DNA from: a virus | Taxonomy: Duplodnaviria; Heunggongvirae; Uroviricota; Caudoviricetes | IMG/VR virus record: IMGVR_UViG_3300031760_000015 | Location: 1 to 43,640 of that record | Length of the DNA stretch: 43,640 nt | Direction: 5' to 3' (one strand) | Part shown: positions 1,455-15,451 of the stretch, piece by piece | How the letters are laid out: each line of letters begins with the position of its first letter | Numbering within the stretch: position 1 is the stretch's first letter | Notes under the pieces: generated by a model | Databases searched by the model: none | The model's input: only the letters and a program-made list of their open reading frames with translations | Told to the model about the DNA's origin: nothing | Position numbers and translations under genes: made by a program

Positions 1455-1480
1455 AATATCTCATTCTTTTTAAATTCTAT

Positions 1481-1512
1481 GTAAATTAGAGTAAACGTAG
1501 AGTCTAATTTAC
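1481..1512. repeat. Palindromic site S4
   Basis: GTAAATTAGA-GTAAACGTAGAG-TCTAATTTAC. Confidence 0.95.
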
Positions 1513-1590
1513 TAACACTTAATCATATCATGCTTACTTCTTAATACTGGAAATGGTATAATAATACATCAAATGAAGGAGGTAACTACC

Positions 1591-1839
1591 ATGAGTAAGT
1601 TCCTGTATGTCGTCTATGATAACCGCGAGGCCGATGTTGTTGTCATCTGTAAAGATATGGACAGCGCCATCAAAAACGCAATCCAATACGCGCACCATGC
1701 CGATTATGAAGTGACTGACTTCGCTTATGGTGAAGGCTATACCACCATCGAATACAAGGTCTTTGTCCCGCGCTTGTATTCTGAAAGCACCACTGAAACC
1801 GGCACCATCGTCATTACTGAATCAGAACTTGAAAACTAA
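1591..1839 (+). CDS. Hypothetical protein, paralog of 3741-3965
   Basis: GGAGG RBS; aligned motifs YV..N.. / F.Y.E..T.I.Y / I.E..L. Confidence 0.8.
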   Translation: MSKFLYVVYDNREADVVVICKDMDSAIKNAIQYAHHADYEVTDFAYGEGYTTIEYKVFVPRLYSESTTETGTIVITESELEN

Positions 1840-1870
1840 TGGGCACAAGCCCATTTTTTATTACCTTAAT

Positions 1871-1902
1871 GTAAATTAGACTATACGGAACTTCTAATTT
1901 AC
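1871..1902. repeat. Palindromic site S5
   Basis: GTAAATTAGA-CTATACGGAACT-TCTAATTTAC. Confidence 0.95.
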
Positions 1903-1972
1903 TAACTCTTAACTTGACAATTTATAAGATTCGATATATAATATATACATAAAAGCAAGGAGGTAACAAACA

Positions 1973-2218
1973 ATGAAGATTTGGACTGATGGTTGCGACA
2001 CCTTTGAGACTGAGGACGAAGCCCGCGAGGATGCTTATGAAAACATTACATGGGATGACATTGAAGAACATTTTCAGGACAATGTCAACTTTCACGACTT
2101 CTTTACCAAAGTGCGCGAAAACTTGCCGAACTTTTTCGAACTCTTTGAAGATGAATGCTGTGAAGCCGAAAATAATTATTTTGATAACCACTATTGGGAG
2201 GAAGGAGAAGAAGAATAG
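1973..2218 (+). CDS. Very acidic small protein
   Basis: GGAGG RBS; D/E-rich 81 aa; terminator follows. Confidence 0.85.
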   Translation: MKIWTDGCDTFETEDEAREDAYENITWDDIEEHFQDNVNFHDFFTKVRENLPNFFELFEDECCEAENNYFDNHYWEEGEEE

Positions 2219-2246
2219 CGGCAACGCTATTCTTTTTTAATCATAT

Positions 2247-2278
2247 GTTAATTAAACTAACCGTATCGTCTAATTTAC
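2247..2278. repeat. Palindromic site S6
   Basis: GTTAATTAAA-CTAACCGTATCG-TCTAATTTAC. Confidence 0.9.
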
Positions 2279-2349
2279 TAATATTTAACTTGACTTCTCA
2301 TATATCATATGCTATAATGTATACATCAAATGAAAGAGAGGTACTCCCC

Positions 2350-2616
2350 ATGAACAAGACTTTCGACTCCATCGCCGCCGATACCGCTACCATCGCCATG
2401 AACATGATGACCATTGAAGAACTTCGCGCAGTAATCAACGCGGCCGCCGACAAGATTGACGAAAAGGCCGAGCGCCACCGCATCGCCATCGAGCAGGCTA
2501 TTGCGGACGCCATCGAAGATGGTTTCGACATCTGCTTCTGGGTTGAGGGCAGGGACGGCGATTGCTTCATCAACCACGAAGAAACCGACCGCATCACGCA
2601 CGTATCCGTAAATTAG
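2350..2616 (+). CDS. Hypothetical protein (GC-rich codons)
   Basis: GAGAGG RBS before ATG 2350. Confidence 0.8.
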   Translation: MNKTFDSIAADTATIAMNMMTIEELRAVINAAADKIDEKAERHRIAIEQAIADAIEDGFDICFWVEGRDGDCFINHEETDRITHVSVN

Positions 2617-2645
2617 TGGGCAACCACTAATTTTTTTAAGCAAGT

Positions 2646-2677
2646 GTAAATTAGAAGGCACGGACCTTCTAATTAAC
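2646..2677. repeat. Palindromic site S7
   Basis: GTAAATTAGA-AGGCACGGACCT-TCTAATTAAC. Confidence 0.9.
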
Positions 2678-2748
2678 AAACAAATAACTTGACTTTTTTC
2701 TCTATTAGGTGTATAATAAATATACAAAAACGAAAGGGGATAACTACT

Positions 2749-2958
2749 ATGGCAATCACTATCAAGCATACCTATTCCGCAAGCGTTGACATTGTTTTTA
2801 CCTCTGAGGACGGCTACTGCTTTCATCAGAAAGTAACCGATACCATGGACGGAATTGCGGAACATGTTTGCGACATGTTCATCGCGCACAAGTTCACCGC
2901 CGCGGATGTTTGCGACGTTAACACTGGCGAACTTCTCATGACCTTGGAGCGGACGTAA
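2749..2958 (+). CDS. Hypothetical protein
   Basis: AAAGGGG RBS before ATG 2749. Confidence 0.8.
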   Translation: MAITIKHTYSASVDIVFTSEDGYCFHQKVTDTMDGIAEHVCDMFIAHKFTAADVCDVNTGELLMTLERT

Positions 2959-2975
2959 GTCCGCTTTAATTTTAT

Positions 2976-3007
2976 GTAAATTAGACTAAACGTAAATTCT
3001 AATTCAT
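2976..3007. repeat. Palindromic site S8
   Basis: GTAAATTAGA-CTAAACGTAAAT-TCTAATTCAT. Confidence 0.9.
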
Positions 3008-3077
3008 TTAAATTTAACTTGACTTCTTCTCTCTAAAATGATATAATTAATACATCAAAAGCAAGGAGGAATAAACC

Positions 3078-3263
3078 ATGAACCTGCCGCTGTACGTCAT
3101 TGATTACATCGTGAACTCTACCAACACTGTTTCCTATCAGTATTTCTATACTACCCGCGCCGCACGTGATTTTCTCTGGATTAATCGTGACAAAATCCAC
3201 GACCCAATTATCACACTCTTCGGAAGCAATATGGAAATCAGTGAAAAAGACTTGCGGGATTAA
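3078..3263 (+). CDS. Hypothetical protein
   Basis: Promoter, GGAGG RBS, terminator. Confidence 0.8.
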   Translation: MNLPLYVIDYIVNSTNTVSYQYFYTTRAARDFLWINRDKIHDPIITLFGSNMEISEKDLRD

Positions 3264-3287
3264 TCCCGCATTTCTTTTTAAGCATAT

Positions 3288-3319
3288 GTAAATTAGAATA
3301 TCCGTATTATCTAATTTTC
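3288..3319. repeat. Palindromic site S9
   Basis: GTAAATTAGA-ATATCCGTATTA-TCTAATTTTC. Confidence 0.9.
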
Positions 3320-3388
3320 AAACTTTTAACTTGACATATACTGATTTATAGATTATAATATATACAGAAATTGAGAGGAGGCAACCCC

Positions 3389-3604
3389 ATGAAACAGATT
3401 AACAAAGTTCAGGCCCGTAAACTTTACAGTGAAAAGAAGCCCTTTATCATTGTGCCTGCGAATATGCGACCTGATTCACAATTCGCCGTTCACATGAAAC
3501 CCGGCTGGATGTGGCGCAATTTCAACAACTTTTACAATGAGTTTTGCTACTATAACTGTAACAAAGAAACAGGCCGCTATCCGCGGTTTTACGTGGAGGA
3601 TTAA
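3389..3604 (+). CDS. Hypothetical protein
   Basis: AGGAGG RBS before ATG 3389. Confidence 0.8.
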   Translation: MKQINKVQARKLYSEKKPFIIVPANMRPDSQFAVHMKPGWMWRNFNNFYNEFCYYNCNKETGRYPRFYVED

Positions 3605-3628
3605 TCCTCCACTTTTTATTATAGCTAT

Positions 3629-3660
3629 GTAAATTAGACTTTCCGTTTAGTCTAATTTAC
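3629..3660. repeat. Palindromic site S10
   Basis: GTAAATTAGA-CTTTCCGTTTAG-TCTAATTTAC. Confidence 0.95.
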
Positions 3661-3740
3661 TCACATTTAACTTTATTATGCTTACTTCTTAATATTCAAA
3701 ATGGTATAATATATCCATCAAATGAAGGGGGTATAAACCT

Positions 3741-3965
3741 ATGAAGGCTATTTACGTCATCACTGAAAACAATGAAGTCATCACCGCCCGCGACACCATG
3801 AACAACGCCGTTGCTGCCGCAATGAACCGGATTGCTATTTGCGGCTATCTGTGTGAAGGGTTCGAATATGACGAATCCTTGACACTCATTGACTACCGCG
3901 ATACCAGCGCGCACGAAACGCGCACGATGCTCATTCAGGAAACGACCTTGCATGAAGGGGTTTAA
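3741..3965 (+). CDS. Hypothetical protein, paralog of 1591-1839
   Basis: Shared atypical promoter and protein motifs. Confidence 0.8.
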   Translation: MKAIYVITENNEVITARDTMNNAVAAAMNRIAICGYLCEGFEYDESLTLIDYRDTSAHETRTMLIQETTLHEGV

Positions 3966-3985
3966 CCCCTTCTTTTTAATTCTAT

Positions 3986-4017
3986 GTAAATTAGATAATC
4001 CGTATCTTCTAATTCAC
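3986..4017. repeat. Palindromic site S11
   Basis: GTAAATTAGA-TAATCCGTATCT-TCTAATTCAC. Confidence 0.9.
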
Positions 4018-4086
4018 ATACAATTAACTTGACAAAATATATCAATTCATGCTATAATAAATCATCAAATGAAGGGGGTTAATACC

Positions 4087-4305
4087 ATGAAGAAATACAG
4101 CATCACTACAAAGTTTGTTACCATGTACACCAAAGAAGAAGAAGTCAAAGTCGAATATACAAATGACTTTGAGGCCGCTTTAGGCGCGTACATCATTTAC
4201 ATTGAAAACCCTGAAGTTGTATTCTGCACTTTGGCACTTCTTAACGAAAATGACACAATTCGAGAAATTGTCGCCGCGTTTAATTCGCAGCATATAAGGG
4301 GTTAA
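4087..4305 (+). CDS. Hypothetical protein
   Basis: AAGGGGG RBS before ATG 4087. Confidence 0.8.
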   Translation: MKKYSITTKFVTMYTKEEEVKVEYTNDFEAALGAYIIYIENPEVVFCTLALLNENDTIREIVAAFNSQHIRG

Positions 4306-4327
4306 TCCCCTTATATGTTGACTATAT

Positions 4328-4359
4328 GTAAATTAGAGTATCCGGACACTCTAATATAC
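4328..4359. repeat. Palindromic site S12
   Basis: GTAAATTAGA-GTATCCGGACAC-TCTAATATAC. Confidence 0.9.
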
Positions 4360-4459
4360 AAAAACTTAATATAAAAAAACTATTGACAAATCAATTTTTT
4401 GTGGTATAATAAAATAAAAACGGTTCAACAACAACGACAACATGAGAGGAGATTTTACA

Positions 4460-4753
4460 ATGTTTTTTCAGATTCAGATTCGTCACGTTTTAGTCTATGG
4501 TTACATCTATGACAACGGCATGTTTGAGATTAACATGTGGGACTTTGACGCCGATGATTATTGGTTCAGGGACGGACGTAAAAAGACTGTTAAGGCCGCG
4601 TGGCGCATGATTTACCACATGGCCCGCGACATGGACAGGATTAACCACATCTTTGATGAAGATGGGGTTGAGGAATTGGAAGAGGCAATGGAACTGTTCT
4701 TTGACGAAGATTTAGAAATGTTAAATCTTGATGAAGATTGGGATTGGGAATAG
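4460..4753 (+). CDS. Acidic-tailed hypothetical protein
   Basis: GAGGAG RBS before ATG 4460; D/E-rich C-terminus. Confidence 0.8.
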   Translation: MFFQIQIRHVLVYGYIYDNGMFEINMWDFDADDYWFRDGRKKTVKAAWRMIYHMARDMDRINHIFDEDGVEELEEAMELFFDEDLEMLNLDEDWDWE

Positions 4754-4782
4754 GCCAACGGCCTATTCTTTTTTAAACTAAT

Positions 4783-4814
4783 GTAAATTAGACTATCCGG
4801 CTACTCTAATTTAC
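4783..4814. repeat. Palindromic site S13
   Basis: GTAAATTAGA-CTATCCGGCTAC-TCTAATTTAC. Confidence 0.95.
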
Positions 4815-5075
4815 GAACATTTAACTTGACAAATCTTGTAAAATTTGGTATAATTAACAATGGTGGAATATTATGAGAAAGGAGGCGATTGTTATGACTA
4901 TGTTAAGGAGTGATTGAGTTTTGGTTAAGACTATATTAAAATTAAGTAAAGTGGCCCGTGTATCGGGTCTGTTAGTGCTGCCTAATTTTAGCTAAACTTA
5001 ACCCATAATTAACTTGACTTACAAGCTGGAAGCTGGTATAATATATATAGAAAAAGAGAGGAGCTGGAGCTGGAT

Positions 5076-5261
5076 ATGAAGAAACTTACTACTGAACAAA
5101 CGGAAAAGCTGAAAGCTGCTATTCGCGCACTATATCAGCTGGAAGATGAGCTGTCAAGTGATTTTGAAGGTAATCGTCAAGATGCCTGGGATGTTCATTC
5201 TATCTTAAAAGTAGCAGACCATCTTACCGTATTGTATGAAAAATGGAAGGAGAATAAGTAA
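5076..5261 (+). CDS. Hypothetical protein
   Basis: Own promoter at 5014; GGAG RBS. Confidence 0.75.
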   Translation: MKKLTTEQTEKLKAAIRALYQLEDELSSDFEGNRQDAWDVHSILKVADHLTVLYEKWKENK

Positions 5262-5262
5262 T

Positions 5263-5457
5263 ATGTTCAAGCCTAATGCAGAACACATCGAAGAACTGAT
5301 GCGTGCAAAAGAGATTTGCGATTCTCTGATTGATGAAATCCATCAAGATGATGATTACCTTTTTCTAATGAATAGAGCAAGACTTAGTAGCGCCGCCGCA
5401 GCCATTGAGAATGTTCTTAATAGTTTTACTAATACCATTGAAGCACTCACACCATGA
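5263..5457 (+). CDS. Hypothetical protein
   Basis: AAGGAG RBS; coupled to the previous gene; terminator at the stop. Confidence 0.75.
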   Translation: MFKPNAEHIEELMRAKEICDSLIDEIHQDDDYLFLMNRARLSSAAAAIENVLNSFTNTIEALTP

Positions 5458-5472
5458 GTGCTTTACTTTTAT

Positions 5473-5504
5473 GTTAATTAAACCGCACGTACAATTTATA
5501 TAAC
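5473..5504. repeat. Palindromic site S14
   Basis: GTTAATTAAA-CCGCACGTACAA-TTTATATAAC. Confidence 0.8.
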
Positions 5505-5574
5505 AATCTTTTAACTTGACATTTTATTCTAAATGATATATAATATATACATCAAGTGAAGGGAGATACAAACT

Positions 5575-5946
5575 ATGCGCGAAGTTACTATGTATTATGC
5601 CTATGATGACAAGGAATTTGACAACTATGAAGCGTGCTTGGTTTATGAAAATAAAGGTTATGGACTAATGCGTAGCATAGAAAAGAAGTATTCTTTCTAT
5701 GATAAGAATATGAAGGAAATGATTCCTCCATATGAATCATCTAATGTTGAAGATTGGTTAACTTGGTTAGATGATGCTTATTCTTACTGCACTTACATTA
5801 GGAAGATGGGCAGTCTGACTGACGATGAAGCAGAAATCATTCGGGAGAATATTGGTGTTTGTATTTTCGAGGAAGATTTCAATTGTGCGGTTGGCCTATT
5901 TAGATATGATACTCGCACAATGGAATGGGTTAAAGTGGATGAATAA
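5575..5946 (+). CDS. Hypothetical protein
   Basis: Promoter, GGGAG RBS, terminator. Confidence 0.8.
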   Translation: MREVTMYYAYDDKEFDNYEACLVYENKGYGLMRSIEKKYSFYDKNMKEMIPPYESSNVEDWLTWLDDAYSYCTYIRKMGSLTDDEAEIIRENIGVCIFEEDFNCAVGLFRYDTRTMEWVKVDE

Positions 5947-5968
5947 TCCACTTTAATTTTAATTATAT

Positions 5969-6000
5969 GTAAATTAAATAATCCGTATATCCTAATTTAC
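5969..6000. repeat. Palindromic site S15
   Basis: GTAAATTAAA-TAATCCGTATAT-CCTAATTTAC. Confidence 0.9.
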
Positions 6001-6069
6001 AAACAATTAACTTGACTTCTTAAATTATATATGCTATACTGTATACATCAAATGAAGGGAGCATAGAAC

Positions 6070-6507
6070 ATGAAGATAGTTTGGGACATGGACGGCACGA
6101 TTGCCGATTTGTATGGTGTGGAGAATTGGCTTACTTACTTGCGTGCTTTTGACCCCACGCCTTATCTTGCGGCGAAACCTCTTGTTAATATGTCAAGATT
6201 GGCATATTGGCTAAACAGATTACAAGAAAAAGGGCACAAACTTGTTATTGTAAGTTGGTTAAGTAAAGAATCAAATCCAGATTATGACAAATTGGTTACT
6301 GATGCCAAAATTAAATGGCTCAACCAACATTTGCCAAGCGTCAAATGGGATGAAATTCATATTGTAGCCTATGGCCGCAATAAATGGGAAATAGCAAAAG
6401 ATGGAATTTTGTTTGATGATGATATGAGAAATCACGAAGCATGGAAAAATGGAAATAGCTATTTCCCCAATGATATATTCGATGTTCTTAAAAAGATGGC
6501 GGCTTGA
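6070..6507 (+). CDS. HAD-superfamily 5'(3')-deoxyribonucleotidase-like phosphatase
   Basis: N-terminal DMDGT (DxDxT) motif and C-terminal LFDDD motif. Confidence 0.8.
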   Translation: MKIVWDMDGTIADLYGVENWLTYLRAFDPTPYLAAKPLVNMSRLAYWLNRLQEKGHKLVIVSWLSKESNPDYDKLVTDAKIKWLNQHLPSVKWDEIHIVAYGRNKWEIAKDGILFDDDMRNHEAWKNGNSYFPNDIFDVLKKMAA

Positions 6508-6530
6508 CCGCCATCTTTTATAAATTATAT

Positions 6531-6562
6531 GTTAATTAAAACGCACGGATAATGTATTTAAC
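6531..6562. repeat. Palindromic site S16
   Basis: GTTAATTAAA-ACGCACGGATAA-TGTATTTAAC. Confidence 0.8.
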
Positions 6563-6630
6563 AAAAAATTTACTTGACTTTTTATAGAAATTATGTTATA
6601 ATAATTATAGAAAACGAAAGGAGAAAGCAA

Positions 6631-6699
6631 ATGTTTATTTGGTTAGTTTTTGCTATCGACATTCTGATTATTTCTGCAATTCTCGTAACAATCATTTAA
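6631..6699 (+). CDS. 22-aa hydrophobic membrane peptide (MFIWLVFAIDILIISAILVTII)
   Basis: Own promoter (6574) and AAGGAG RBS; below ORF-track cutoff. Confidence 0.6.
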   Translation: MFIWLVFAIDILIISAILVTII

Positions 6700-6776
6700 C
6701 TTGACTTTCTCGCCTCAACATGTTATAATGTATCTACAAAGTGAAGGAAAACACTAAACCAGAGAGGAGTTAATCT

Positions 6777-7238
6777 ATGGCTAACATGAGTAAGGCAGCC
6801 CTCGAAACCGCTATCCGCAATGACATTCTTTCCGCTATGACTGCTTTCCTGTCTGAACACTTTGAAGCCGATGTAATGGACGTTAGCGCAAGCGAACTGG
6901 CTATGCCTGTTGTCGATGCCGAAGGCAACGAAAAGTTCGCACTGATTAAGGTATCTATTCCGCGTGGTTCTCGCAATGGCGATGGCGGTTATGATGCCTA
7001 TGACGGTTACGCAGCCCATGATGAATGGGAACTTGTCAAGGCAGACAAAGCAGACAAAGAAGCAAAGCGCAAGGAAAAGGCAGAACGCGCAGAGAAGGAA
7101 AAAGAGCGCAAGCGCGCCGCAAAGAAAACTATTAAGAAACTGAATACCGAAGGGCTTCAGGCGATGATTCACGCGCCTGACCCCGAAGAAGAAAAAGATG
7201 ACGATAACCAATTCCTGCCCCAAGAAGTGACGGTTTAA
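6777..7238 (+). CDS. Hypothetical protein with K/A/E-rich tail (family with 8201-8515 and 12459-12797)
   Basis: Promoter, conserved leader, GAGGAG RBS. Confidence 0.85.
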   Translation: MANMSKAALETAIRNDILSAMTAFLSEHFEADVMDVSASELAMPVVDAEGNEKFALIKVSIPRGSRNGDGGYDAYDGYAAHDEWELVKADKADKEAKRKEKAERAEKEKERKRAAKKTIKKLNTEGLQAMIHAPDPEEEKDDDNQFLPQEVTV

Positions 7239-7261
7239 CCGTCACTTTATTTTATATCTAT

Positions 7262-7293
7262 GTTAATTATATTGTACGTTCAATCTATATTAC
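7262..7293. repeat. Palindromic site S17
   Basis: GTTAATTATA-TTGTACGTTCAA-TCTATATTAC. Confidence 0.8.
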
Positions 7294-7363
7294 AAACAAT
7301 TAACTTGACTTCTATGCGCGAATCATGTATAATTATATCAGAAAACGAAAGGAGAATTGCCAA

Positions 7364-7504
7364 ATGATTATTACTGTAACTATTGATACTGATGATATGA
7401 CCTTCTGCGCTTCTGATGAGAATGATGAAATATATGTAGATTATACCAAATGTGACCCCGAAGATATTACAATAAAAGAAATAATTAACGATTTCTTAAC
7501 TTGA
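7364..7504 (+). CDS. 46-aa acidic protein
   Basis: AAGGAG RBS; TGA stop overlaps the next -35 box. Confidence 0.65.
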   Translation: MIITVTIDTDDMTFCASDENDEIYVDYTKCDPEDITIKEIINDFLT

Positions 7505-7554
7505 CTTCTACTCTTCAATATGCTATAATAATTCCAGAAAGTGAGGGAAAGCAA

Positions 7555-7710
7555 ATGAAATACACAGTTGATATTTATTTTTCTTCTGGATATAATGGAA
7601 ATTGGCGAAATTGTGGTTATACCTTTCCAACTTATATTGACGCATATCTGTGGGTATGTCTCAATTATCCTAATCTTATTTCTAAAGATTATAGATTTAG
7701 AGAGGTTTAA
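7555..7710 (+). CDS. Hypothetical protein
   Basis: GAGGG RBS before ATG 7555. Confidence 0.7.
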   Translation: MKYTVDIYFSSGYNGNWRNCGYTFPTYIDAYLWVCLNYPNLISKDYRFREV

Positions 7711-7713
7711 AAA

Positions 7714-7935
7714 ATGAGTAAAAAGAATAATTCTACTTATGAAGTTATCCGCAAAATACGCGGTGATTGGGGTAGTATCAATCCAGTAACCAAAGTAATT
7801 CCAAATAAGAAAAAGAATTATCAGTTTGATGATGATTATTATAGTATGGACGATTGTAATTATGATTTAGAGCATCTTAGAGCAGACCATTATGAAGAAG
7901 ATGATTATTATTTTGAAGATTGGAGCGATTATTAA
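7714..7935 (+). CDS. Hypothetical protein with D/Y-rich tail
   Basis: GAGG RBS; operonic. Confidence 0.7.
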   Translation: MSKKNNSTYEVIRKIRGDWGSINPVTKVIPNKKKNYQFDDDYYSMDDCNYDLEHLRADHYEEDDYYFEDWSDY

Positions 7936-8126
7936 TGATTGTAGCAGGACTTATCCGCGCAGCCCAAACCAAAGTTATTATTAACAGTGTTATAATTTGG
8001 AATCCAAATACCAGCCGCGCTTTATATGTTGGTTCAGTAAGTGAAATCCCCGAAAAACTTAAATATAAAGAAGTAAATTCCTATCGTTATAGCAAAGAAA
8101 AAGAAAGAATAATAATAAGGATTTAA
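7935..8126 (+). CDS. Hypothetical protein
   Basis: TAATG overlap with upstream stop; terminator at the stop. Confidence 0.7.
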   Translation: MIVAGLIRAAQTKVIINSVIIWNPNTSRALYVGSVSEIPEKLKYKEVNSYRYSKEKERIIIRI

Positions 8127-8148
8127 TCCTTATTATTTTTAATTATAT

Positions 8149-8180
8149 GTAAAATACATTATACGTTCACTCTAATTTAC
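8149..8180. repeat. Palindromic site S18 (terminator on both sides; left end of inversion 1)
   Basis: GTAAAATACA-TTATACGTTCAC-TCTAATTTAC; no adjacent promoter. Confidence 0.9.
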
Positions 8181-8188
8181 ACTAAATT

Positions 8189-8213
8189 AAAAAAGAAGGC
8201 TTACGCCTTCTTT
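8189..8213 (-). terminator. Intrinsic terminator of the inverted gene, facing site S18
   Basis: Minus strand AAGAAGGC-GTAA-GCCTTCTTTTTT. Confidence 0.8.
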
Positions 8214-8515
8214 TCCTTCGCCGCAATCTTAGCAGCCTTTTCAGCTTCCTTGGCAGCCTTATTATCAGCCTTAATCTGACGTTCGGCTTCCCATTCCTGC
8301 GCAGCCTCATAGGGGTCAAATGCCTTGGATACCTTGGTATCCTTGTAAGCCTTGGACTTCACAGAAACTTCTGTCCAAACTTCCTGACCGTCCACAGTCT
8401 GGAGAATGGCGAAAGAGCCATCCGCAAACTTTACGGCATCATTTTCCTGAAGTGACGGCATGATAGCGGCAATGGTCATCTGACGAGCGGTAGCCTTAAT
8501 CTCATTAGCGTTCAT
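8201..8515 (-). CDS. Inverted cassette gene, K/A-rich tail family
   Basis: Minus-strand promoter TTGACA 8597-8592/TATAAT, leader, AAAGGG RBS, terminator 8189-8213. Confidence 0.85.
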   Translation of the reverse strand: MNANEIKATARQMTIAAIMPSLQENDAVKFADGSFAILQTVDGQEVWTEVSVKSKAYKDTKVSKAFDPYEAAQEWEAERQIKADNKAAKEAEKAAKIAAKEKKA

Positions 8516-8619
8516 GTATTTCCCTTTCTGGTTTTTAGGACTTGTTCCTTGTCCTCTTGACAGTTATTATTATAGCAGAATTTCATTTCCTTGTCAATAC
8601 TTTTCTATGTTAATTTCAT

Positions 8620-8651
8620 TTTAATTAGAAGTCCCGTAATTTCTAATTTTT
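8620..8651. repeat. Palindromic site S19 (promoter on both sides; right end of inversion 1)
   Basis: TTTAATTAGA-AGTCCCGTAATT-TCTAATTTTT; divergent TTGACA boxes 22 bp away on each side. Confidence 0.8.
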
Positions 8652-8743
8652 CAAATCTTAACTATCCTAATACTTGACATTTCATTCTAATTCTGCTATA
8701 ATAATTACAGTTGAGGGAGAGGAAAGGAACTCCCAAAACACAT

Positions 8744-8818
8744 GAGGGTGTAGCCAAGTGGTATGGCAATGGACTTTTAATCCATGTATCGCGGGTTCGA
8801 TTCCCGCCACCCTCACCA
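8744..8818 (+). tRNA. trnK: tRNA-Lys(UUU)
   Basis: Acceptor GAGGGTG/CACCCTC-A-CCA; anticodon arm ATGGA-CTTTTAA-TCCAT; T-loop GGTTCGATTCC; own promoter 8674-8702. Confidence 0.95.
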
Positions 8819-8871
8819 ACTTCACGAAATCTTAACTTGACAAAGTTGGGGAATCGTGATATAATGAAAAT

Positions 8872-8942
8872 GTTGAAGGGCGAGGGTGGAAACCACCGCA
8901 AAGCACTGCTACGCAAAAGCCACAATTCCCGAACCCTTTAAC
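8872..8942 (+). ncRNA. Candidate ~70-nt small RNA
   Basis: Promoter TTGACA 8837/TATAAT 8860; closing stem GTTGAAGGG/CCCTTTAAC; internal GGTGG-AAA-CCACC hairpin; no ORF. Confidence 0.55.
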
Positions 8943-9033
8943 AAACTCTTAACTTGACATTATAGCCAATCGGTGCTATAATAAATACATCAAAGGGAAC
9001 GACACCCTACAAACGAGAAAGGAATTAACCACT

Positions 9034-9381
9034 ATGAAGAAGTCTACTCTTGAGATGATGAAGAACTATCTGAACGGCGACAACACTGTTGACCTGTCCG
9101 TTCTGCGCGACGAGGTTAATGCCGAGTGGGAACGCACTACCTCAAAGTCCCGCGCTAATAAGGAACTGTATGATGCGGCGCATGATGCTCTGATGGCTTA
9201 CGAAGCATGGAACAAGCCCATGACAAGCAAGGAACTGTGGGAAGTTGTGGGCGCGGATATGCCCGAAGGCTTCACTGAAAGCAAGATGCGCTACGGTTGC
9301 CTTAACTACTGGACTGATGAGGTTCAGAAGAACGACAACGGCAAGAACCCTGCTACCTACGAGCGCAAGCCGCAGGATTAA
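9034..9381 (+). CDS. Hypothetical protein (possible winged-helix-like fold)
   Basis: Promoter, AAAGGA RBS, terminator 9388-9412; fold is a guess from the MTSKELWE..YCL pattern. Confidence 0.8.
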   Translation: MKKSTLEMMKNYLNGDNTVDLSVLRDEVNAEWERTTSKSRANKELYDAAHDALMAYEAWNKPMTSKELWEVVGADMPEGFTESKMRYGCLNYWTDEVQKNDNGKNPATYERKPQD

Positions 9382-9423
9382 AATAAGAAAAGCACCCACA
9401 GGGTGCTTTTCTTTTACGTTTAT

Positions 9424-9455
9424 GTAAATTAAATTGCACGTACATTCTATATAAC
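9424..9455. repeat. Palindromic site S20
   Basis: GTAAATTAAA-TTGCACGTACAT-TCTATATAAC. Confidence 0.85.
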
Positions 9456-9527
9456 ATAGTTTTAACTTGACTTCTCAAACATAGTATGCTATAATAAATA
9501 CATCAAATGAAGGGAGATTAAATCAAT

Positions 9528-9821
9528 ATGAATAATGTATACTCTAAAGTTTTTAGTTGCCTTCCCGAACTTAGCGAAATTGAGCTTGAAGCTCTTGCAG
9601 AAGCATGTCAAGAAAGAGCAGAAGGGAAAAGAAAAGCACGCCGTGAAGTATTGCGGCAAGAATTAATGGAGAATCTTCAAAAAGTCATTGGGGATATTCT
9701 TCATAATGGTTTTAATCTCGCTATTAAAAATACTGGATGCAATCCTGAATACGATGATTATGTTGAAGTTTTTTTTGAACCCGGAGATATTTATTCAATA
9801 GTAATGGTAGATAATAAGTAG
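9528..9821 (+). CDS. Hypothetical protein
   Basis: Promoter, GGGAG RBS, terminator. Confidence 0.8.
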   Translation: MNNVYSKVFSCLPELSEIELEALAEACQERAEGKRKARREVLRQELMENLQKVIGDILHNGFNLAIKNTGCNPEYDDYVEVFFEPGDIYSIVMVDNK

Positions 9822-9848
9822 CGGCAACGCTACTTTTTTTAATTTCAA

Positions 9849-9880
9849 GTAAATTAAATTGCACGTACACTCTAATTCAT
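9849..9880. repeat. Palindromic site S21
   Basis: GTAAATTAAA-TTGCACGTACAC-TCTAATTCAT. Confidence 0.9.
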
Positions 9881-9981
9881 CAACACTTAACATAAAAAAG
9901 TATTGACAAATAGATATAGAGGGTGTATAATATATCCAGAAAGTGAAGGAAAACACTTGACAAACCAGAAAGGGATTGAAC

Positions 9982-11022
9982 ATGCAGTTTAAGAAAGAGC
10001 GTAATTTCATCGTGGCGTATGACGGCGTTATCAAGTTGGGCGCGTGGGACATTTCCAACGGTTCTTTCATTGGCAAGAGCGGCAAGCCTGTTAAGAATGT
10101 TCCTTCTTGCTTTACCTATCGTAATTTGCCTTCATGGCGTAGTGGCGCGAATGACCTTGCCTATGCTATTTATTGGTATCGGACAAACCTTTCCGATAAT
10201 TATACGGAAGTTATGGGCGCACACTTTGAACAGCTTTTGAGTTTGGGGCTTTTCCCGAACAGCACCAACAGTCTTTACGATAAACCCAATCTTAACAAAA
10301 AGATTGTGGAGTATCTCAAAGAAGAAAATCAGAGTTATTATGATTCTATTAAGGTAGCGCGTTACCTTGCCTTAATCCAGCATGAACAGTATATTAACAC
10401 TTTGCCTGATTGGGCAAAAGAAGTTTTTAGTAGCCTTTTGAGATCTAATATTCCCATTGATTATATTAAGACTGCGTTAAATCGTGTTATCCATGAACAT
10501 GTTGACGCTTTTATTAAAGATAGCTATTACATTTCTGGAAAAATCTTTGAAATGTTGAAAGATTATTATAATATTTCCATGAAGTTGTTTAACAAAGTGG
10601 AAATAGAAAAAAATTTCCTGACTAAATACGCAATTTTGAAATATCTTGCGGAAGAATACAAGAATAAGCACTATAATGAAGAATTGGCAAAGAATAACGA
10701 TAAATCATGGCTTTACTACGAAAACGAAACCTTTATTGTAAAGCCGATTTTGACCAAAGAGGATTTCCATATAGAGGGCGAAGCGCAGCGAAATTGCGTT
10801 GAAAGAATGTATATGGAAAAAGTATACAAAGGCGAAACTCACGTTGTAACTATTCGCCGCAAGTCTGACCCTAATAAATCTTATATAACTTGTGAAGTTA
10901 GCAACGATGGTAGGATTTGGCAGTATTTGGCACGTTGTAACGAAACGCCCAAAGAACAGGACGCAAGGAACTTCAAAGTAGAATATACACAGCATCTTAA
11001 CAGAAACTACAAAAAGGATTAA
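9982..11022 (+). CDS. PcfJ-like domain protein
   Basis: C-terminal EGEAQRNCVE..Y.....IRRK....YITCEV...G.I.QY....N..P pattern typical of PcfJ. Confidence 0.75.
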   Translation: MQFKKERNFIVAYDGVIKLGAWDISNGSFIGKSGKPVKNVPSCFTYRNLPSWRSGANDLAYAIYWYRTNLSDNYTEVMGAHFEQLLSLGLFPNSTNSLYDKPNLNKKIVEYLKEENQSYYDSIKVARYLALIQHEQYINTLPDWAKEVFSSLLRSNIPIDYIKTALNRVIHEHVDAFIKDSYYISGKIFEMLKDYYNISMKLFNKVEIEKNFLTKYAILKYLAEEYKNKHYNEELAKNNDKSWLYYENETFIVKPILTKEDFHIEGEAQRNCVERMYMEKVYKGETHVVTIRRKSDPNKSYITCEVSNDGRIWQYLARCNETPKEQDARNFKVEYTQHLNRNYKKD

Positions 11023-11054
11023 CCCGAAAGGGTTAATCTCTTTTTTAAGGCTAT

Positions 11055-11086
11055 GTAAATTAAACAGTCCGGACACTCTAATTTAC
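11055..11086. repeat. Palindromic site S22
   Basis: GTAAATTAAA-CAGTCCGGACAC-TCTAATTTAC. Confidence 0.92.
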
Positions 11087-11172
11087 GCACATTTAACTTG
11101 CGTTTCTTCCCTGACTGTGCTATAATATATCCAGAGTTGAAGGAAAACAACACAAACCAGAAAGGCTTTATT

Positions 11173-12186
11173 ATGGCGAATAAGACCAAGCGTTATCTGA
11201 TGTTGGATTGTGAAACTGCTACCTTGCCATTTGCGGATGAAATCGCGGGTGACAATCCCGAGCGCAAAAAGCGTATAGCCATTGCCAAGCCCTTGATTTA
11301 TGATATTGGTTGGACTATTACCAATCGCAAGGGCGACATTCTGGAAAGCAAGCAATTTTTGATTGCGGAAACTTTCGCCGTTCCTGCTGTATTCAATACT
11401 GCGTATTACGCAGAAAAGCGCCCCATTTATCTTGAAATGCTCAAGAAAAATGAAACCAGCATAAAGCCGTGGAATGAAGTTATGGATGTGTTAATTGCCG
11501 ATATGGGCATTGTCGATGGTGTCGGCGCGTTTAATTCAATGTTTGATTTTAAGAAAGCTATTCCTTTTACTGAACTTTACATTCAGGAATTGTATAGCCC
11601 CACTTATTATCAATGGGAACAGTTACAGCGCAGAAGCGCGGCGCGCATTGCCGATGGAGAACGCAATCAACCGAACCCCGATTTTGAAGCCGATATTTTC
11701 CGCTTCCGTGGAAAAAAATATTCACTTTTCGATATGTGGGGACTTGCCACGACTTACCTTTTGAATAATACTACTTATAAGAATAAGTGTTTGGAACATT
11801 CAATGCTTACTAATTCAGGAACATTCTTTAAAACAAGTGCAGAAAGCACTTTCCGTTATCTCTGTGATAAATATGATTTTATGGAAAGCCATACCGCGCT
11901 TGATGATGCTATCATAGAAAGTTTCATACTTTCCAAGGTTGCTCAAAAGCATAGTATAACAATGGGAATTAAATTCTTCCCTTTCCGTGATTTGGGCGCT
12001 ACTGATGAATTTTGTATGAGAAGGAAAAAAGCAAACAAGCGCGAATGTGAAACTGTGTATTGTGCTATGGCAGATTACATAAACGCAAAATTAGATGAAG
12101 CGGATGAATTATCTAATTATGCGGTAGGATTAGTCCGCAGGATGCGCAGACTTGCCGAGTATGCGGGATTTGAATGTAATTATTAA
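11173..12186 (+). CDS. DEDDh (DnaQ-like) 3'-5' exonuclease
   Basis: ExoI LDCETA, ExoII FNSMFD, ExoIII HTALDD. Confidence 0.85.
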   Translation: MANKTKRYLMLDCETATLPFADEIAGDNPERKKRIAIAKPLIYDIGWTITNRKGDILESKQFLIAETFAVPAVFNTAYYAEKRPIYLEMLKKNETSIKPWNEVMDVLIADMGIVDGVGAFNSMFDFKKAIPFTELYIQELYSPTYYQWEQLQRRSAARIADGERNQPNPDFEADIFRFRGKKYSLFDMWGLATTYLLNNTTYKNKCLEHSMLTNSGTFFKTSAESTFRYLCDKYDFMESHTALDDAIIESFILSKVAQKHSITMGIKFFPFRDLGATDEFCMRRKKANKRECETVYCAMADYINAKLDEADELSNYAVGLVRRMRRLAEYAGFECNY

Positions 12187-12223
12187 GTTAAGAGCCACGA
12201 GGCTCTTTTCTTATTAAGCAAAT

Positions 12224-12255
12224 GTAAATTAAAGTGTACGTACACTCTAATTTAC
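12224..12255. repeat. Palindromic site S23
   Basis: GTAAATTAAA-GTGTACGTACAC-TCTAATTTAC (spacer is itself a perfect palindrome). Confidence 0.95.
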
Positions 12256-12301
12256 TTTCTTTTAACTTGACATTTGTGGGATTTTCTGATATACTATATT
12301 T

Positions 12302-12366
12302 GTTGAAAGGGAGAGGGCAACACTCCTGCTCCATAAGAACCAGTCAAGAGCCAACTCCCTTTTAAC
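12302..12366 (+). ncRNA. Candidate ~65-nt small RNA
   Basis: Promoter TTGACA 12267/TATACT 12290; 12-bp closing stem GTTGAAAGGGAG/CTCCCTTTTAAC; no ORF. Confidence 0.55.
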
Positions 12367-12458
12367 AAACTCTTAACTTGACATTTAGCACATAACGTGC
12401 TATAATGAATACATCAAGTGAAGGAAAACACTTAAAAACCAGAAAGGATTTCACTACT

Positions 12459-12797
12459 ATGGCGAAGATTTCTAAGGCTGTCGTTGATTCCAACATCCGT
12501 ACCGCTATCTTCAACACCCTGCACATTGCCGACATTGAAGGTATCCACAAGATTAATGATCGTCAGTATGGTTGCCTTGTGACCGATTCCAACGGCGTTG
12601 AGCGTTACGCGCGTATCGGCGTAATCGTTGCCGAAGAACGCGAGGACATGACCGCCGCCGAACTCATGGCCGCCGAAATTGCGGACTATGAGGACAAGCA
12701 GGCGAAGAAGGCCGCGAAGGCCGCCGAGCGTGCCGAAAAGGCCGCAAAGGACAAGGCCAAGCGTGAAGCCGCGAAAAAGGAAAAAGAAGGGGAGTAA
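12459..12797 (+). CDS. Hypothetical protein, K/A-rich tail family
   Basis: AAAGGA RBS before ATG 12459. Confidence 0.85.
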   Translation: MAKISKAVVDSNIRTAIFNTLHIADIEGIHKINDRQYGCLVTDSNGVERYARIGVIVAEEREDMTAAELMAAEIADYEDKQAKKAAKAAERAEKAAKDKAKREAAKKEKEGE

Positions 12798-12819
12798 CCC
12801 CTTCTTTTTTTAAGTTAAT

Positions 12820-12851
12820 GTAAATTAAAGTGTACGGACATTCTAATTTAC
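12820..12851. repeat. Palindromic site S24
   Basis: GTAAATTAAA-GTGTACGGACAT-TCTAATTTAC. Confidence 0.92.
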
Positions 12852-12941
12852 CAACTCTTAATTTGACAAATAGCCAAGCCCATGCTATAATATATACATC
12901 AAGTGAGGGAAAACACTTAAAAACCAGAGAGGACAATATTT

Positions 12942-13109
12942 ATGTATCAGATTCATTTTCTTCTTCTCAATGGTGAACATGCTATTATTGCAAATTGGGT
13001 AAACTCGAACAGGTTTCCTACTAAAGAAGATGCAATGAGATTTGCGCAGAATACTGCAAAAAGTTTCAATGGAAGTTGCTACAATATCTTTTATCGAGTT
13101 GTAGGATAA
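12942..13109 (+). CDS. 55-aa hypothetical protein (MYQIHFLLLNGEHA...)
   Basis: Promoter 12863, conserved leader, GAGAGG RBS; below ORF-track cutoff. Confidence 0.7.
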   Translation: MYQIHFLLLNGEHAIIANWVNSNRFPTKEDAMRFAQNTAKSFNGSCYNIFYRVVG

Positions 13110-13205
13110 CAAAACCTTAACTTGACAAACTCCACTTCATCTGATATAATATAATCAATCAAGTGAAGGAAAACACTAACAAACCCAAGAGAGAAAGGAA
13201 TCAAT

Positions 13206-13616
13206 ATGAATATGAACTCTAACATCAAGTGCGGCACTTCCATCAATGGCGGCGTGGTTCTGACTGATATGCCCATCAAGGCTCTGGTTGCCCTGCGTGA
13301 TGCGGTAGACGATGCTATCCGCAATTCCCGTAAGGATGATTCTGACCGCCTTCTGACCGACATTATTTCCGCGATTGATGCGGCAAATGATGAGGGCTAT
13401 ATGGTTAATCTGAATGGCAAGCCCATTTGTCCTGACCTTCTGACCGTAGATTATGATGAAGATAATGACTATTGGGATGACGATGAAGACGAGGACGAAG
13501 ATGATGATGATTGGGATGACGATTGGGATGATGATGACGAGGATGAGGACAATGAGGATAGCCCATGTGATGGTTGCGAAGATGATTGTTTCTATTGTCC
13601 CCATTGTGATTGTTAA
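13206..13616 (+). CDS. Extremely acidic protein with C-terminal Cys cluster
   Basis: Poly-D/E tract followed by CDGCEDDCFYCPHCDC. Confidence 0.85.
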   Translation: MNMNSNIKCGTSINGGVVLTDMPIKALVALRDAVDDAIRNSRKDDSDRLLTDIISAIDAANDEGYMVNLNGKPICPDLLTVDYDEDNDYWDDDEDEDEDDDDWDDDWDDDDEDEDNEDSPCDGCEDDCFYCPHCDC

Positions 13617-13651
13617 GAAAAGGGCGTAAGCCCTTTTCTTTTTAAGCATAT

Positions 13652-13683
13652 GTAAATTAGATAGCACGTTCAATTTAATTTAC
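13652..13683. repeat. Palindromic site S25
   Basis: GTAAATTAGA-TAGCACGTTCAA-TTTAATTTAC. Confidence 0.92.
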
Positions 13684-13754
13684 TTACAATTAACTTGACT
13701 TCCATTCCGTTCTATGCTATAATATATTCAAGAAAACGAAAGGGGATTCAAATT

Positions 13755-13907
13755 ATGAATTATCTTGATGCCTTGAATTATGTCTTGTCAATGTCTGGAG
13801 AATTGGAAGAGTTAGGCATGACTAAAGAATGTCATACTCAACTTTGCCTTCTTAGAGACAAAGTTTATAAAGAAATGCAGCAAGAGAAAAGAAAGGAGCA
13901 TAACTAA
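13755..13907 (+). CDS. Hypothetical protein
   Basis: AAAGGGG RBS before ATG 13755. Confidence 0.7.
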   Translation: MNYLDALNYVLSMSGELEELGMTKECHTQLCLLRDKVYKEMQQEKRKEHN

Positions 13908-13909
13908 TT

Positions 13910-14098
13910 ATGGATTACATTTGCCCTCATTGCGACACTGAACTTGAACTGACCGAAGTCGAAACCTATCAGGATTATAGTGGTTCGCGCATACTAACCG
14001 AGTATAATACTTGGTATTGCCCTACTTGCGGCCGCACGTATCAGAATGAGACTAACTATGTCTATGTTGATGAAACTGAATTGAAGGAGATTAAGTAA
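13910..14098 (+). CDS. Zinc-ribbon protein
   Basis: CPHC...CPTC. Confidence 0.8.
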   Translation: MDYICPHCDTELELTEVETYQDYSGSRILTEYNTWYCPTCGRTYQNETNYVYVDETELKEIK

Positions 14099-14129
14099 GG
14101 CGCGAAAGCGCCTTTTATTTTATACATAT

Positions 14130-14161
14130 GTAAATTATAGTGTACGTACAATTTAATTCAT
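14130..14161. repeat. Palindromic site S26
   Basis: GTAAATTATA-GTGTACGTACAA-TTTAATTCAT. Confidence 0.85.
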
Positions 14162-14233
14162 ATACTTTTAACTTGACTTTTCACGCAGAATATATTATAA
14201 TAAATACATCAAATGAAAGGGGAATAAAACATT

Positions 14234-14608
14234 ATGTTGAAGATGAATTATTCAGATCTCAAAGAAAAGAACTATCGCCAGCTTATCAAAGAGTGCGAGC
14301 GTCGCGGAATTGATACTTCTGATTATAGAGGTTGTATGCCTCCAAATGATCTTATTGGAAAGATTATCGCGCATGATGCCTACTATGAAGGGCGCGATGA
14401 TGCTCTTAATGGGCGTCCCTCCAAGGTAGAAATGAACCGCAAAAATGAGCGCACTCGCTATCGTTTTCGGGAATGTGATGGAACTGAGCATTATGTTATG
14501 CTTACGCGTGAGCAAGAGCGTTTTATGCGTTGGAATTACGATAATGCTATTGATTATGATAATATGGATATAGATGTTATTGAAGACATTAATTGGGAAA
14601 CTCCATAA
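14234..14608 (+). CDS. Hypothetical protein (N-terminus resembles a Rho-N/SAP-like helical motif)
   Basis: LKEKNYRQLIKECERRGI pattern; promoter, RBS and terminator. Confidence 0.75.
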   Translation: MLKMNYSDLKEKNYRQLIKECERRGIDTSDYRGCMPPNDLIGKIIAHDAYYEGRDDALNGRPSKVEMNRKNERTRYRFRECDGTEHYVMLTREQERFMRWNYDNAIDYDNMDIDVIEDINWETP

Positions 14609-14630
14609 AGAGTTTCCTTTTTAATTTCAA

Positions 14631-14662
14631 GTTAATTAAACTGTCCGTGCAGTCTAATTCAT
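14631..14662. repeat. Palindromic site S27
   Basis: GTTAATTAAA-CTGTCCGTGCAG-TCTAATTCAT. Confidence 0.85.
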
Positions 14663-14734
14663 ATACATTTAACTTGACTTTTCTTCCTATCTTGTGTATA
14701 CTATATACATCAAATGAAAGAGAGGACAGTTCAC

Positions 14735-15451
14735 ATGGTTGATAAGCGTATTCATTACTATTTGGTGTTGGATGTAGAGACAGCTAACGGTTTGGATGAC
14801 CCATTGGTTTATGATATTGGTGGCGCGATAACCGACAAACAAGGTAGGATTTACGAAACATTTTCTTTCGTAATTCGAGACATTTTCATCTATGAGCGTT
14901 TTCTCATGGAAACGGCATACTATGCTAACAAGGTTCCCGATTATATTCAAGACTTGGAAAATGATAATCGTATTCTCATTGATTTCCACAATGCGCGAAA
15001 ATATATTCTTGCGCTAATGGAAAAATACAACATAACAGATGTTGCCGCTTATAACGCACATTTTGACCGCAACGCATTGAATACAACGCAGCGTTGGTTA
15101 ACCAAATCTAAATATAGATACTTTTTCCCCTATGGCACAAACTTCATCTGTATTTGGAATATGGCTTGCCAAACCCTATGCCAACGCAAAACATATAAAG
15201 AATTTTGTGAAAAGAATAATTTCACAAGCAATCGCAAGGGAGAACCAAACGCAAAGAATTACAGCACGAGCGCAGAAACAGTTTACAGATACTTAATACT
15301 AAACGCAAATTATGAGGAAGAACATAAAGGTTTAGAAGATGTTAAGATTGAAACATATATTATGAAAAGATGCTTTTCCTCAAAAAAGAAAATGCCATAT
15401 GGTAAAGGAATTAAAAGAAATTGTTGGATGTTGGTTAAGAGAACGGTTTAA
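14735..15451 (+). CDS. Second DEDDh 3'-5' exonuclease
   Basis: LDVETA, YNAHFD, HKGLED motifs; homologous to 11173-12186. Confidence 0.85.
   Translation: MVDKRIHYYLVLDVETANGLDDPLVYDIGGAITDKQGRIYETFSFVIRDIFIYERFLMETAYYANKVPDYIQDLENDNRILIDFHNARKYILALMEKYNITDVAAYNAHFDRNALNTTQRWLTKSKYRYFFPYGTNFICIWNMACQTLCQRKTYKEFCEKNNFTSNRKGEPNAKNYSTSAETVYRYLILNANYEEEHKGLEDVKIETYIMKRCFSSKKKMPYGKGIKRNCWMLVKRTV

Follow-up and report, generated by a model that had tools for sequence, protein, structure and literature searches.

In the hyperplastic regions of T4-type phages, genes are carried in promoter-early stem-loop (PeSL) cassettes (Arbiol et al. 2010, PMC2839356; Comeau et al. 2014, PMC4122927), whose exchange has been attributed to homologous recombination at the repeats, with no recombinase dedicated to it; the word "inversion" is absent from the main text of the 2010 paper (PMC2839356). 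The stoperators of Cluster A mycobacteriophages, which belong to the L5 gp71-type repressor, work without a promoter by blocking elongation (PMC9283540, PMC6550527). The locus described here shows similarities to both systems and lies in a stretch of 43,640 bases (the window), which is the first part of the 107,640-base IMG/VR record IMGVR_UViG_3300031760_000015, a genome of Caudoviricetes that is about 61% complete. In this window, a minus-strand unit encoding a protein of 104 residues (p104, 8201-8515) lies between two copies of a repeated 32-bp palindrome, S18 and S19, and had been described in a first-pass annotation of the sequence as a cassette flipped between them. Our analysis indicates that the flip is real but old and fixed, and is not a working switch. 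The explanation that we consider the best, and regard as probable with clear reservations, is that the palindromes are protein-bound operator or boundary sites and that p104 was flipped by an old and rare recombination between palindromic elements.

We read the phage as large and virulent and the window as holding its early-gene region, in which about 30 units follow one another, each complete in itself. Related phages, with genomes of 165-184 kb, come from metagenomes of cattle gut or rumen; five of them are complete (G001-G005) and were compared with the present record (G000); a blastn search of INPHARED for the nearest annotated phages matched a tRNA alone. Thirty copies of the palindrome, GTAAATTAGA-N5-CG-N5-TCTAATTTAC, are present within 285-16456, and the central CG occurs in all of them. 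Scores against the position weight matrix (PWM) of the array range from 13 to 41, compared with a maximum of 11.9 in 20 shuffles. The units have a common order (terminator hairpin with T run, TTAA-N4-ATG, site, C-A-N5-TTAAC, TTGACA-17 nt-TATAAT, leader, small gene), each of the approximately 30 units having its own consensus promoter, and the flanks of the sites are themselves symmetric (TTAA), so that the whole palindromic element comprises about 54 bp. The orientation of the array is strongly biased, with 27 of the 30 units on the plus strand.

This organization resembles PeSL cassettes in that small accessory early genes are framed by a repeated terminator hairpin and a strong sigma-70-type promoter, of which there are about 30 such units here, and in that units have been gained, lost or replaced between related phages, homology breaking in the repeated modules in this group as well. 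However, a separate 32-bp palindrome, which is phased to the promoter and lineage-specific, stands here between terminator and promoter; it persists at promoterless junctions and supplies inverted homology that makes flips possible, whereas PeSL modules are directional. For PeSL units, mini-circles excised through recombination of adjacent modules have been described. With the stoperators the array shares the repetition of one motif, about 30 times, in short gaps between genes (protein binding being putative here) and a motif sequence that depends on the lineage, which in stoperators changes along with the repressor. Stoperators, on the other hand, are asymmetric, orientation-dependent sites of 13-14 bp that are recognized by a monomeric immunity repressor in temperate phages, whereas the sites described here are symmetric, 32 bp long (19 bp in some relatives) and promoter-phased, and no integrase domain was found.

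The anatomy of the S18-S19 locus is as follows. S18, the 18th site of the array (8149-8180, centre CG at 8164/8165), forms a convergent junction at which two terminators face each other. On its left is the terminator (8111-8137, plus strand; a 12-bp AU-rich stem followed by a U run, -10.5 kcal/mol, z -2.3; kept in the relatives L022, L023 and L009) of a small AT-rich upstream gene, identified in the list of open reading frames (ORFs), that encodes 63 aa from the ATG at 7935 (7935-8126, plus strand). On its right, 13 nt away as at canonical sites, is the terminator of the reversed gene (8189-8216, minus strand; -15.9 kcal/mol, z -4.2), which is 100% conserved in four relatives. No promoter-like site with at least 10 of 12 consensus positions was found on either strand within 8100-8560, in agreement with the first-pass view that S18 has a terminator on each side and no promoter. 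The gene of p104 (8201-8515) is a complete minus-strand unit, as had been annotated, comprising its terminator, a leader (8516-8568) with a small hairpin and a conserved AAAACCAGAAAGGG ribosome-binding region that is the same in 27 relatives, and a promoter (8569-8597) that matches the consensus at 12/12 positions with a TG (TTGACA at 8597-8592, TATAAT at 8574-8569). By sequence comparison, a module of 22-nt spacing follows on the same strand (8598-8619), consisting of an 11-nt A-rich spacer, TTAAC and a 6-nt flank; from TTAAC through the -35 box it differs from the module of S21 (~9880-9905) at two positions, as judged by eye.

S19, the 19th site (8620-8651, centre CG at 8635/8636), is the weakest of the array (PWM 21.2 and 13.5) and forms a divergent junction between two 12/12 promoters, each starting 22 nt from the site. 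The plus-strand side (8652-8702) contains TTAAC at 8658-8662, an 11-nt spacer and the promoter (8674-8702) of a unit whose first product is tRNA-Lys(UUU) (8744-8818, plus strand), and this unit is orthologous in G001-G004. All four flanks of the two sites thus have canonical spacing. An in-silico flip of 8165-8635, corresponding to the CG-to-CG inversion of the first-pass annotation, gave the order terminator-site-promoter with 22-nt spacing at both junctions, as had been predicted.

The same geometry was observed beyond this locus. In a census of G000, G001, G003 and G005, 11 convergent and 13 divergent junctions were detected with one site at each (24/24), the incomplete automatic classes having been completed by hand for the left terminator of S18, G001 61518, G003 38527 and S30, and otherwise assigned by analogy from the position in the array. 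The automatic census of promoter pairs was noisy (false antisense promoters 54-57 nt apart) and was replaced by a site-centred census with manual checks. The convergent sites start at 8149 and 15473 in G000, at 44491, 59238 and 62365 in G001, at 24457, 35469, 37474 and 39374 in G003, and at 161379 and 167847 in G005; the divergent ones start at 8620 and 16425 in G000, at 44810, 61518 and 63183 in G001, at 23910, 24777, 36505, 38527 and 39932 in G003, and at 156441, 161880 and 168690 in G005. If a site were tied to a promoter, no site would be expected at a convergent junction and two at a divergent one, but a single site was observed at each. Moreover, since normal spacing is kept at both ends, the breakpoints should lie at an equal offset from the two site centres, and equal offsets are what recombination between two copies of a palindrome would produce, the offset being any value between 0 (the CG) and ~27 bp, the limit of the symmetry. 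These data support breakpoints at matching positions inside the ~54-bp palindromic elements, with the central CG not pinpointed. The earlier proposal that the inversion took place within the sites is therefore sustained at the level of the elements by the spacing geometry, while a crossover at the CG is not supported and a simple in-situ flip is one of several routes that fit. The inner 5+5 nt were also tried as barcodes for the crossover, and were uninformative, as the rebuilt pre-flip sites were no more symmetric or consensus-like; a comparison by eye of the inner half-sites with orthologous sites of G001 and G003 gave no discrimination.

The orientation of the unit was then compared among relatives. 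p104 is antisense to the array majority in all six genomes examined (6/6) and in 21 of 22 close homologues, and L022, L023, L009 and L015, with 85-93% protein identity, have exactly the same arrangement as the window. The unit is co-oriented with its neighbours in the more distant L031-L035 and in L026, where the order is p104, terminator, site, promoter and p245 (a neighbouring unit encoding a protein of 245 aa); the consistent orientation of the gene family thus holds for the close homologues and not throughout. The size of the reversed block varies: G000 and G005 have a single unit, G003 has two, G001 has four, and G002 and G004 have at least three. Its neighbour on the promoter side is the p115 unit in G000, G002 and G004, p245 in G001 and G003 (where a single site lies between the p245 promoter and the promoter end of the p104 block, which face each other) and p153 in G005, and the order and content of units vary among G000-G005. 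The p104 tree implies at least 2-3 changes of orientation, which is a soft count given 107 columns and units that move laterally.

Two trivial or regulatory explanations of the reversed unit can be evaluated from public data, for which 24 sequencing runs were available, all as assembled contigs. It is conceivable that the segment was misoriented during assembly, because inverted repeats longer than the assembler word size leave orientation ambiguous. However, S18 and S19 share only arms of ~10 bp, below any usual assembly word, and in run X1 error-free contigs bridge both S18 (8107-8351) and S19 (8523-8770) in the orientation of the window. Diverged strains in X2 and X3 bridge both junctions likewise (the three runs are from three studies), 14 contigs from JGI agree on the order, and no strand-changing joint is listed in the contigs of X1-X3; an artefact is therefore exceedingly improbable. 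Junction patterns were also searched, one joining the terminator of the upstream gene to that of p104 (flipped) and a second representing the predicted unflipped state. The flipped junction was detected in 3 IMG/VR and 14 JGI contigs from at least nine metagenomes and the unflipped one in none, and the run contigs also lacked the alternative orientation whose presence across the junctions had been considered in the first-pass annotation.

These results also bear on the possibility that a Hin/Gin-like or other invertase flips 8165-8635 during infection and thereby toggles p104 or its neighbours. Such a switch would be suggested by the presence of a complete transcription unit between two palindromic sites with an identical central CG, and as in Hin/hix and Gin/gix, the flipped segment lies between two imperfect palindromes whose central dinucleotide is conserved. 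Here, however, the CG is common to all 30 sites and hence not specific, the sites are tied to promoters throughout the array, and a single orientation was present in the contigs of four runs from four studies and in the 17 public contigs. The same arrangement has been inherited by relatives at 85-93% protein identity. The p104 unit carries its own promoter and terminator either way, so flipping leaves the pairing of promoter and gene unchanged and alters nothing obvious. In addition, no invertase or integrase domain was detected in the record (about 61% complete) and its five complete relatives: PF00239 (Resolvase) and PF00589 (Phage_integrase) had no match in these six records, whereas control searches matched 12/14 and 14/14 genomes, respectively. 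An active switch is thus very unlikely.

The sites that lack a promoter provide further information about the function of the palindromes. Convergent-junction sites were not weaker than others, with a mean within-genome percentile of 0.64 vs 0.49 (Mann-Whitney p = 0.08). S18 itself has a consensus right arm, a left arm with two mismatches and full PWM strength (28.5 in the 30-bp model and 37.9 in the 32-bp model), which confirms the annotated retention of strong arms and CG. Orthologous sites are present in L022, L023, L009 and L015; in L015 the site has a CCGG core, as do the other sites of that lineage, and the minus-strand terminator beside it is identical in 5/5 aligned sequences despite this change of core. 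Similarly, the core of the site that follows p245 is ACGT in G000 and G003 but CCGG in G001. S18-type sites are thus maintained, or at least homogenised, without a promoter. Sites that lack a promoter have lost none of their strength and have changed together with the consensus of their lineage, so the sites are more than accessories of promoters. The first-pass annotation had argued that an operator would have no purpose at S18; this argument is not supported, as a stoperator-like boundary or roadblock role between converging units is conceivable and would be a sufficient purpose for S18, which on its own provides no argument for a recombination site.

Related phages have arrays of 16-22 kb with 30-39 copies per genome, and in each the site takes a form of its own. 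The core is CCGG in G001 and ACGT in G003, whereas G002 and G004 have GTTAA-N6-GGCCGGCC-N6-TTAAC, G005 has a 19-bp site, TTGGATGTAnTACATCCAA, and L031-L035 have TTAGATGTTnAACATCTAA. The site family is independent of the backbone: G003 is closer to G004 than to G001 (median protein identity 85% and 66%, respectively), yet shares its site type with G001, implying that the site family, presumably together with its binder, has been exchanged independently of the remaining genome. As judged from these sequences, the occurrence of lineage-own palindromes within the same architecture suggests a protein that co-evolves with them. Sequence conservation is found in the arms, whereas the inner 5+5 nt are variable and complementarity between them is not required; together with S18, which has no hairpin potential (folding at 0 kcal/mol), this argues for a double-strand protein site and not a hairpin element. 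We read the palindromes as putative operator or boundary sites of a lineage-specific dimeric phage protein.

Several side observations on these site families can be added. The backbones of G003 and G004 (L040-L064) contain many proteins that are 85-99% identical, and their early arrays have different palindrome families. GGCCGGCC, which we take to be the 8-bp target of FseI-type enzymes, occurs in ~30 copies in G002 (62218-78339) and G004 (135627-157489), in a phage that is AT-rich by impression. A second arm type (ACTAAC/GTTAGT) is present in part of the G002 and G004 arrays, together with hybrid sites, and two related binding specificities may exist in one genome.

A role in transcription is suggested by the position of the sites relative to promoters, which was examined in the arrays of the window (285-16456), G001 (42487-63214), G003 (22738-39963), G004 (135627-157489) and G005 (152892-171821). 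The distances from site to -35 box are 11, 21-22 and 33 nt in G000, G001 and G003, and with the unrelated 19-bp palindrome of G005 the commonest site-promoter distances are 9 and 20 nt. Steps of ~11 nt correspond to one helical turn, and we take this to mean that a bound protein would touch the transcription machinery from one face of the DNA; such helical phasing points to a transcription role. The 22-nt class has a conserved A-rich insert of 11 nt just upstream of the -35 box, which resembles a proximal UP element. A comparable arrangement is known for phi29 p4, which binds inverted repeats spaced by about two helical turns upstream of early as well as late promoters. As proposed here for the palindromes, they are dimer sites with arm centres ~21 bp apart upstream of the -35 box of strong host-type promoters; p4 contacts RNA polymerase from one helix face, and a single site can serve divergent promoters. 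The two systems differ in that phi29 has a handful of sites, not 30, and in the lack of any sequence relation; no p4-like protein was encountered, although no search was aimed at one.

Instead, a phage recombinase or nuclease that has escaped recognition might use the palindromes as crossover sites to excise, insert and flip units, in the manner of an integron but without IntI and attC, with the central CG as the point of exchange and S18 kept as a recombination site. In serine-recombinase crossover sites, the outer arms are conserved, the inner part is variable and the central dinucleotide is invariant, a pattern to which the palindromes bear some likeness. Such a dedicated system would account for the one-site rule and the symmetric geometry, for promoterless sites that stay at full strength and track the lineage consensus, and for the shuffled order of units between genomes, and integrons likewise consist of small single-gene units that are heterogeneous and exchangeable and have imperfect palindromes between them. 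However, no Resolvase or Phage_integrase domain is present in the six records, and no alternative junction was found among 17 contigs. Orientation is both biased (27/30) and stable (21/22), whereas orientation-blind sites should randomise it, and the helical phasing favours a role in transcription. Furthermore, what is shared across site types is the unit from the -10 box to the terminator, so that exchange has taken place in the promoter and at the terminator edge, outside the sites. The integron comparison is limited in addition by the lack of a tyrosine recombinase domain, by the presence of a promoter and a terminator in each unit (integron cassettes are mostly promoterless), and by the nature of attC, which is a folded single-strand hairpin, in contrast to the sequence-conserved double-strand motifs described here, with S18 at 0 kcal/mol. 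Crossover sites of this kind are therefore considered doubtful, with only a small chance of being correct. A slightly smaller chance is given to the more general idea that unrecognised phage recombination machinery flips or moves units at double-strand palindromes without a tyrosine or serine recombinase, as a phage counterpart of the integron; if this were true, S18 would be maintained for recombination, and the phasing to promoters would reflect a further use, in transcription, of the protein bound there.

In the explanation favoured here, a putative dimeric phage protein would bind the palindrome and act on the adjacent promoter from one helix face, and the same protein may in addition delimit or insulate the units. 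Reversal of the p104 unit (8189-8619) would go back to an old and rare recombination event involving two palindromic elements: since a palindrome is also an inverted repeat of itself, exchange between two co-oriented elements would flip the intervening DNA. Alternatively, an excised unit could have re-entered in either orientation. Either route would leave one intact site per junction and normal spacing on all four sides, and the exchange itself may have been homologous or microhomology-driven, performed by phage or host functions, as proposed for PeSL cassettes. The rearrangement is of a type already seen, with no new mechanism; the present locus contributes a variant with sites of 32 bp, together with the census of junctions, the argument from geometry and the test for fixation.

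Several findings weigh against this explanation. The inverted homology between the two sites is only ~10 bp per arm, little for homologous recombination of the ordinary kind. Because many of the 24 junctions are orthologous to one another, the number of independent events is far smaller, perhaps 6-8, and the one-site rule has an exception in the divergent junction shared by G002 and G004, which contains a tandem pair of weak sites at a distance of 34 bp. IMG/VR and JGI contigs yielded no relative in which p104 has the opposite orientation between the same neighbours, and in-situ flip, reverse insertion and trimming of a larger reversed block are consequently indistinguishable. The orientation evidence comes from assembled contigs, from which a rare second orientation could escape. 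The homology of the unit to G001-G005 extends from 8148-8191 (the S18/terminator edge) to the promoter spacer at 8577-8585, short of S19, suggesting that the piece exchanged between lineages reaches from the -10 box to the terminator and that the S19-side join of the window is secondary. Finally, the search for the binder, in which all ORFs of G003 (ACGT core) were compared with G000, G001, G004 and G005 and class-correlated proteins were scanned with Pfam, gave no credible DNA-binding or recombinase candidate that tracks the site class. The proteins that do track it, none of them a credible binder, were a permease, a deoxyribosyltransferase, a cREC receiver domain, an HNH nuclease, DUF2726, a Thg1-like protein and small unknowns; p104 was also rejected as the site binder, being 91% identical in G004 despite the different site type.

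Some of these data would fit breakpoints outside the sites, in which case only the promoter-gene-terminator segment between resident sites would have been inverted, or inserted in reverse, by illegitimate or promoter/terminator-based recombination, with the sites retained for a function of their own and the spacing tuned later. Inverting a segment between two sites likewise leaves one site per junction, cassette homology stops in the promoter spacer and at the terminator edge, and the two-site junction of G002 and G004 would place the block boundary there between the sites. However, canonical spacing at S18, S19 and the 22 other junctions would then need either equal offsets by chance or repeated tuning, and the palindrome with its symmetric flanks is the sole inverted-orientation sequence common to two co-oriented intergenic modules. 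On the position of breakpoints in homologous loci the evidence is thus divided, as homology ends in the promoter spacer at ~8585 while one-site geometry holds at 24/24 junctions, and we consider breakpoints outside the sites unlikely, though deserving attention.

A second reversed block (15473-16456) was noticed in the window, in which S28 is convergent, S29 canonical on the minus strand and S30 divergent. It is apparently orthologous, by position only (after p245 and before a helicase-like gene of 424 aa), to G001 62365-63214 and G003 39374-39963; its cargo proteins (58, 90 and 71 aa) had no tblastn match at the counterparts in G001 and G003. If the blocks are orthologous, this reversal is also old and fixed.

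The protein encoded by the reversed unit is predicted to consist of a helix, three strands and a long Lys/Ala/Glu-rich helix (AlphaFold model, pLDDT 92). Comparison of p104 and its neighbours with Pfam and PHROGs identified no family and a single weak PHROG match of unknown function, and a Foldseek search of the model against PDB and AFDB clusters returned nothing at E <= 0.001; rows suggesting a likeness to HU were weak (E 0.24, TM 0.2) and were not accepted as evidence. p104 (8201-8515, minus strand) is paralogous to p153 (6777-7238, plus strand), with 30% identity. The two proteins are alike in having a helix and three-strand core and a Lys/Ala/Glu-rich C-terminal helix, and the L035 homologue of p104 bears the acidic C-terminal tail of p153.

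Among the neighbours, the upstream gene (7935-8126) has homologues in three IMG/VR relatives only, all with the same flipped arrangement. It belongs to an AT-rich block between S17 and S18 (7277-8130) with 4-5 very small genes, for which blastn against G001-G005 gave promoter- or leader-like matches only; the block looks like a recent acquisition beside the convergent junction. Promoter-driven noncoding units of ~70-80 nt, starting with GTTGAAGGG or GTTCCAAGGG, were observed between the site-linked and a second promoter (8837-8950 in the window, and in relatives). Such a unit is located directly upstream of the p104 promoter in most of L010-L030 and is absent there in the window. p245 is the commonest unit beside p104 in relatives. 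The paralogous early proteins at 14714-15451 (245 aa) and 11098-12186 (362 aa) have no Pfam match and share an LVLDVETAN-type start, which resembles the Exo I motif of DEDD 3'-5' exonucleases. Near the end of the window, a 278-aa protein (42404-43240) has the motif RVDGRAFHSFTKG in its G003 orthologue, which resembles that of tRNA-His guanylyltransferase (Thg1) and would fit a tRNA-rich and RNA-repair-rich phage.

The flip can be regarded as a natural experiment, as it produces sites devoid of a promoter (S18, and ten more in relatives) that are kept at full strength and track the lineage consensus, so that the palindromes appear to mark unit boundaries in their own right, beyond promoter control. 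The contrast between a palindromic operator and the directional PeSL module means that early units can be turned round, and not only gained or lost. The rule of one site per junction with kept spacing offers a tool for tracing the shuffling of early genes in a large group of uncultured rumen phages, and the putative binding protein is a target for understanding how ~30 strong early promoters may be controlled jointly.

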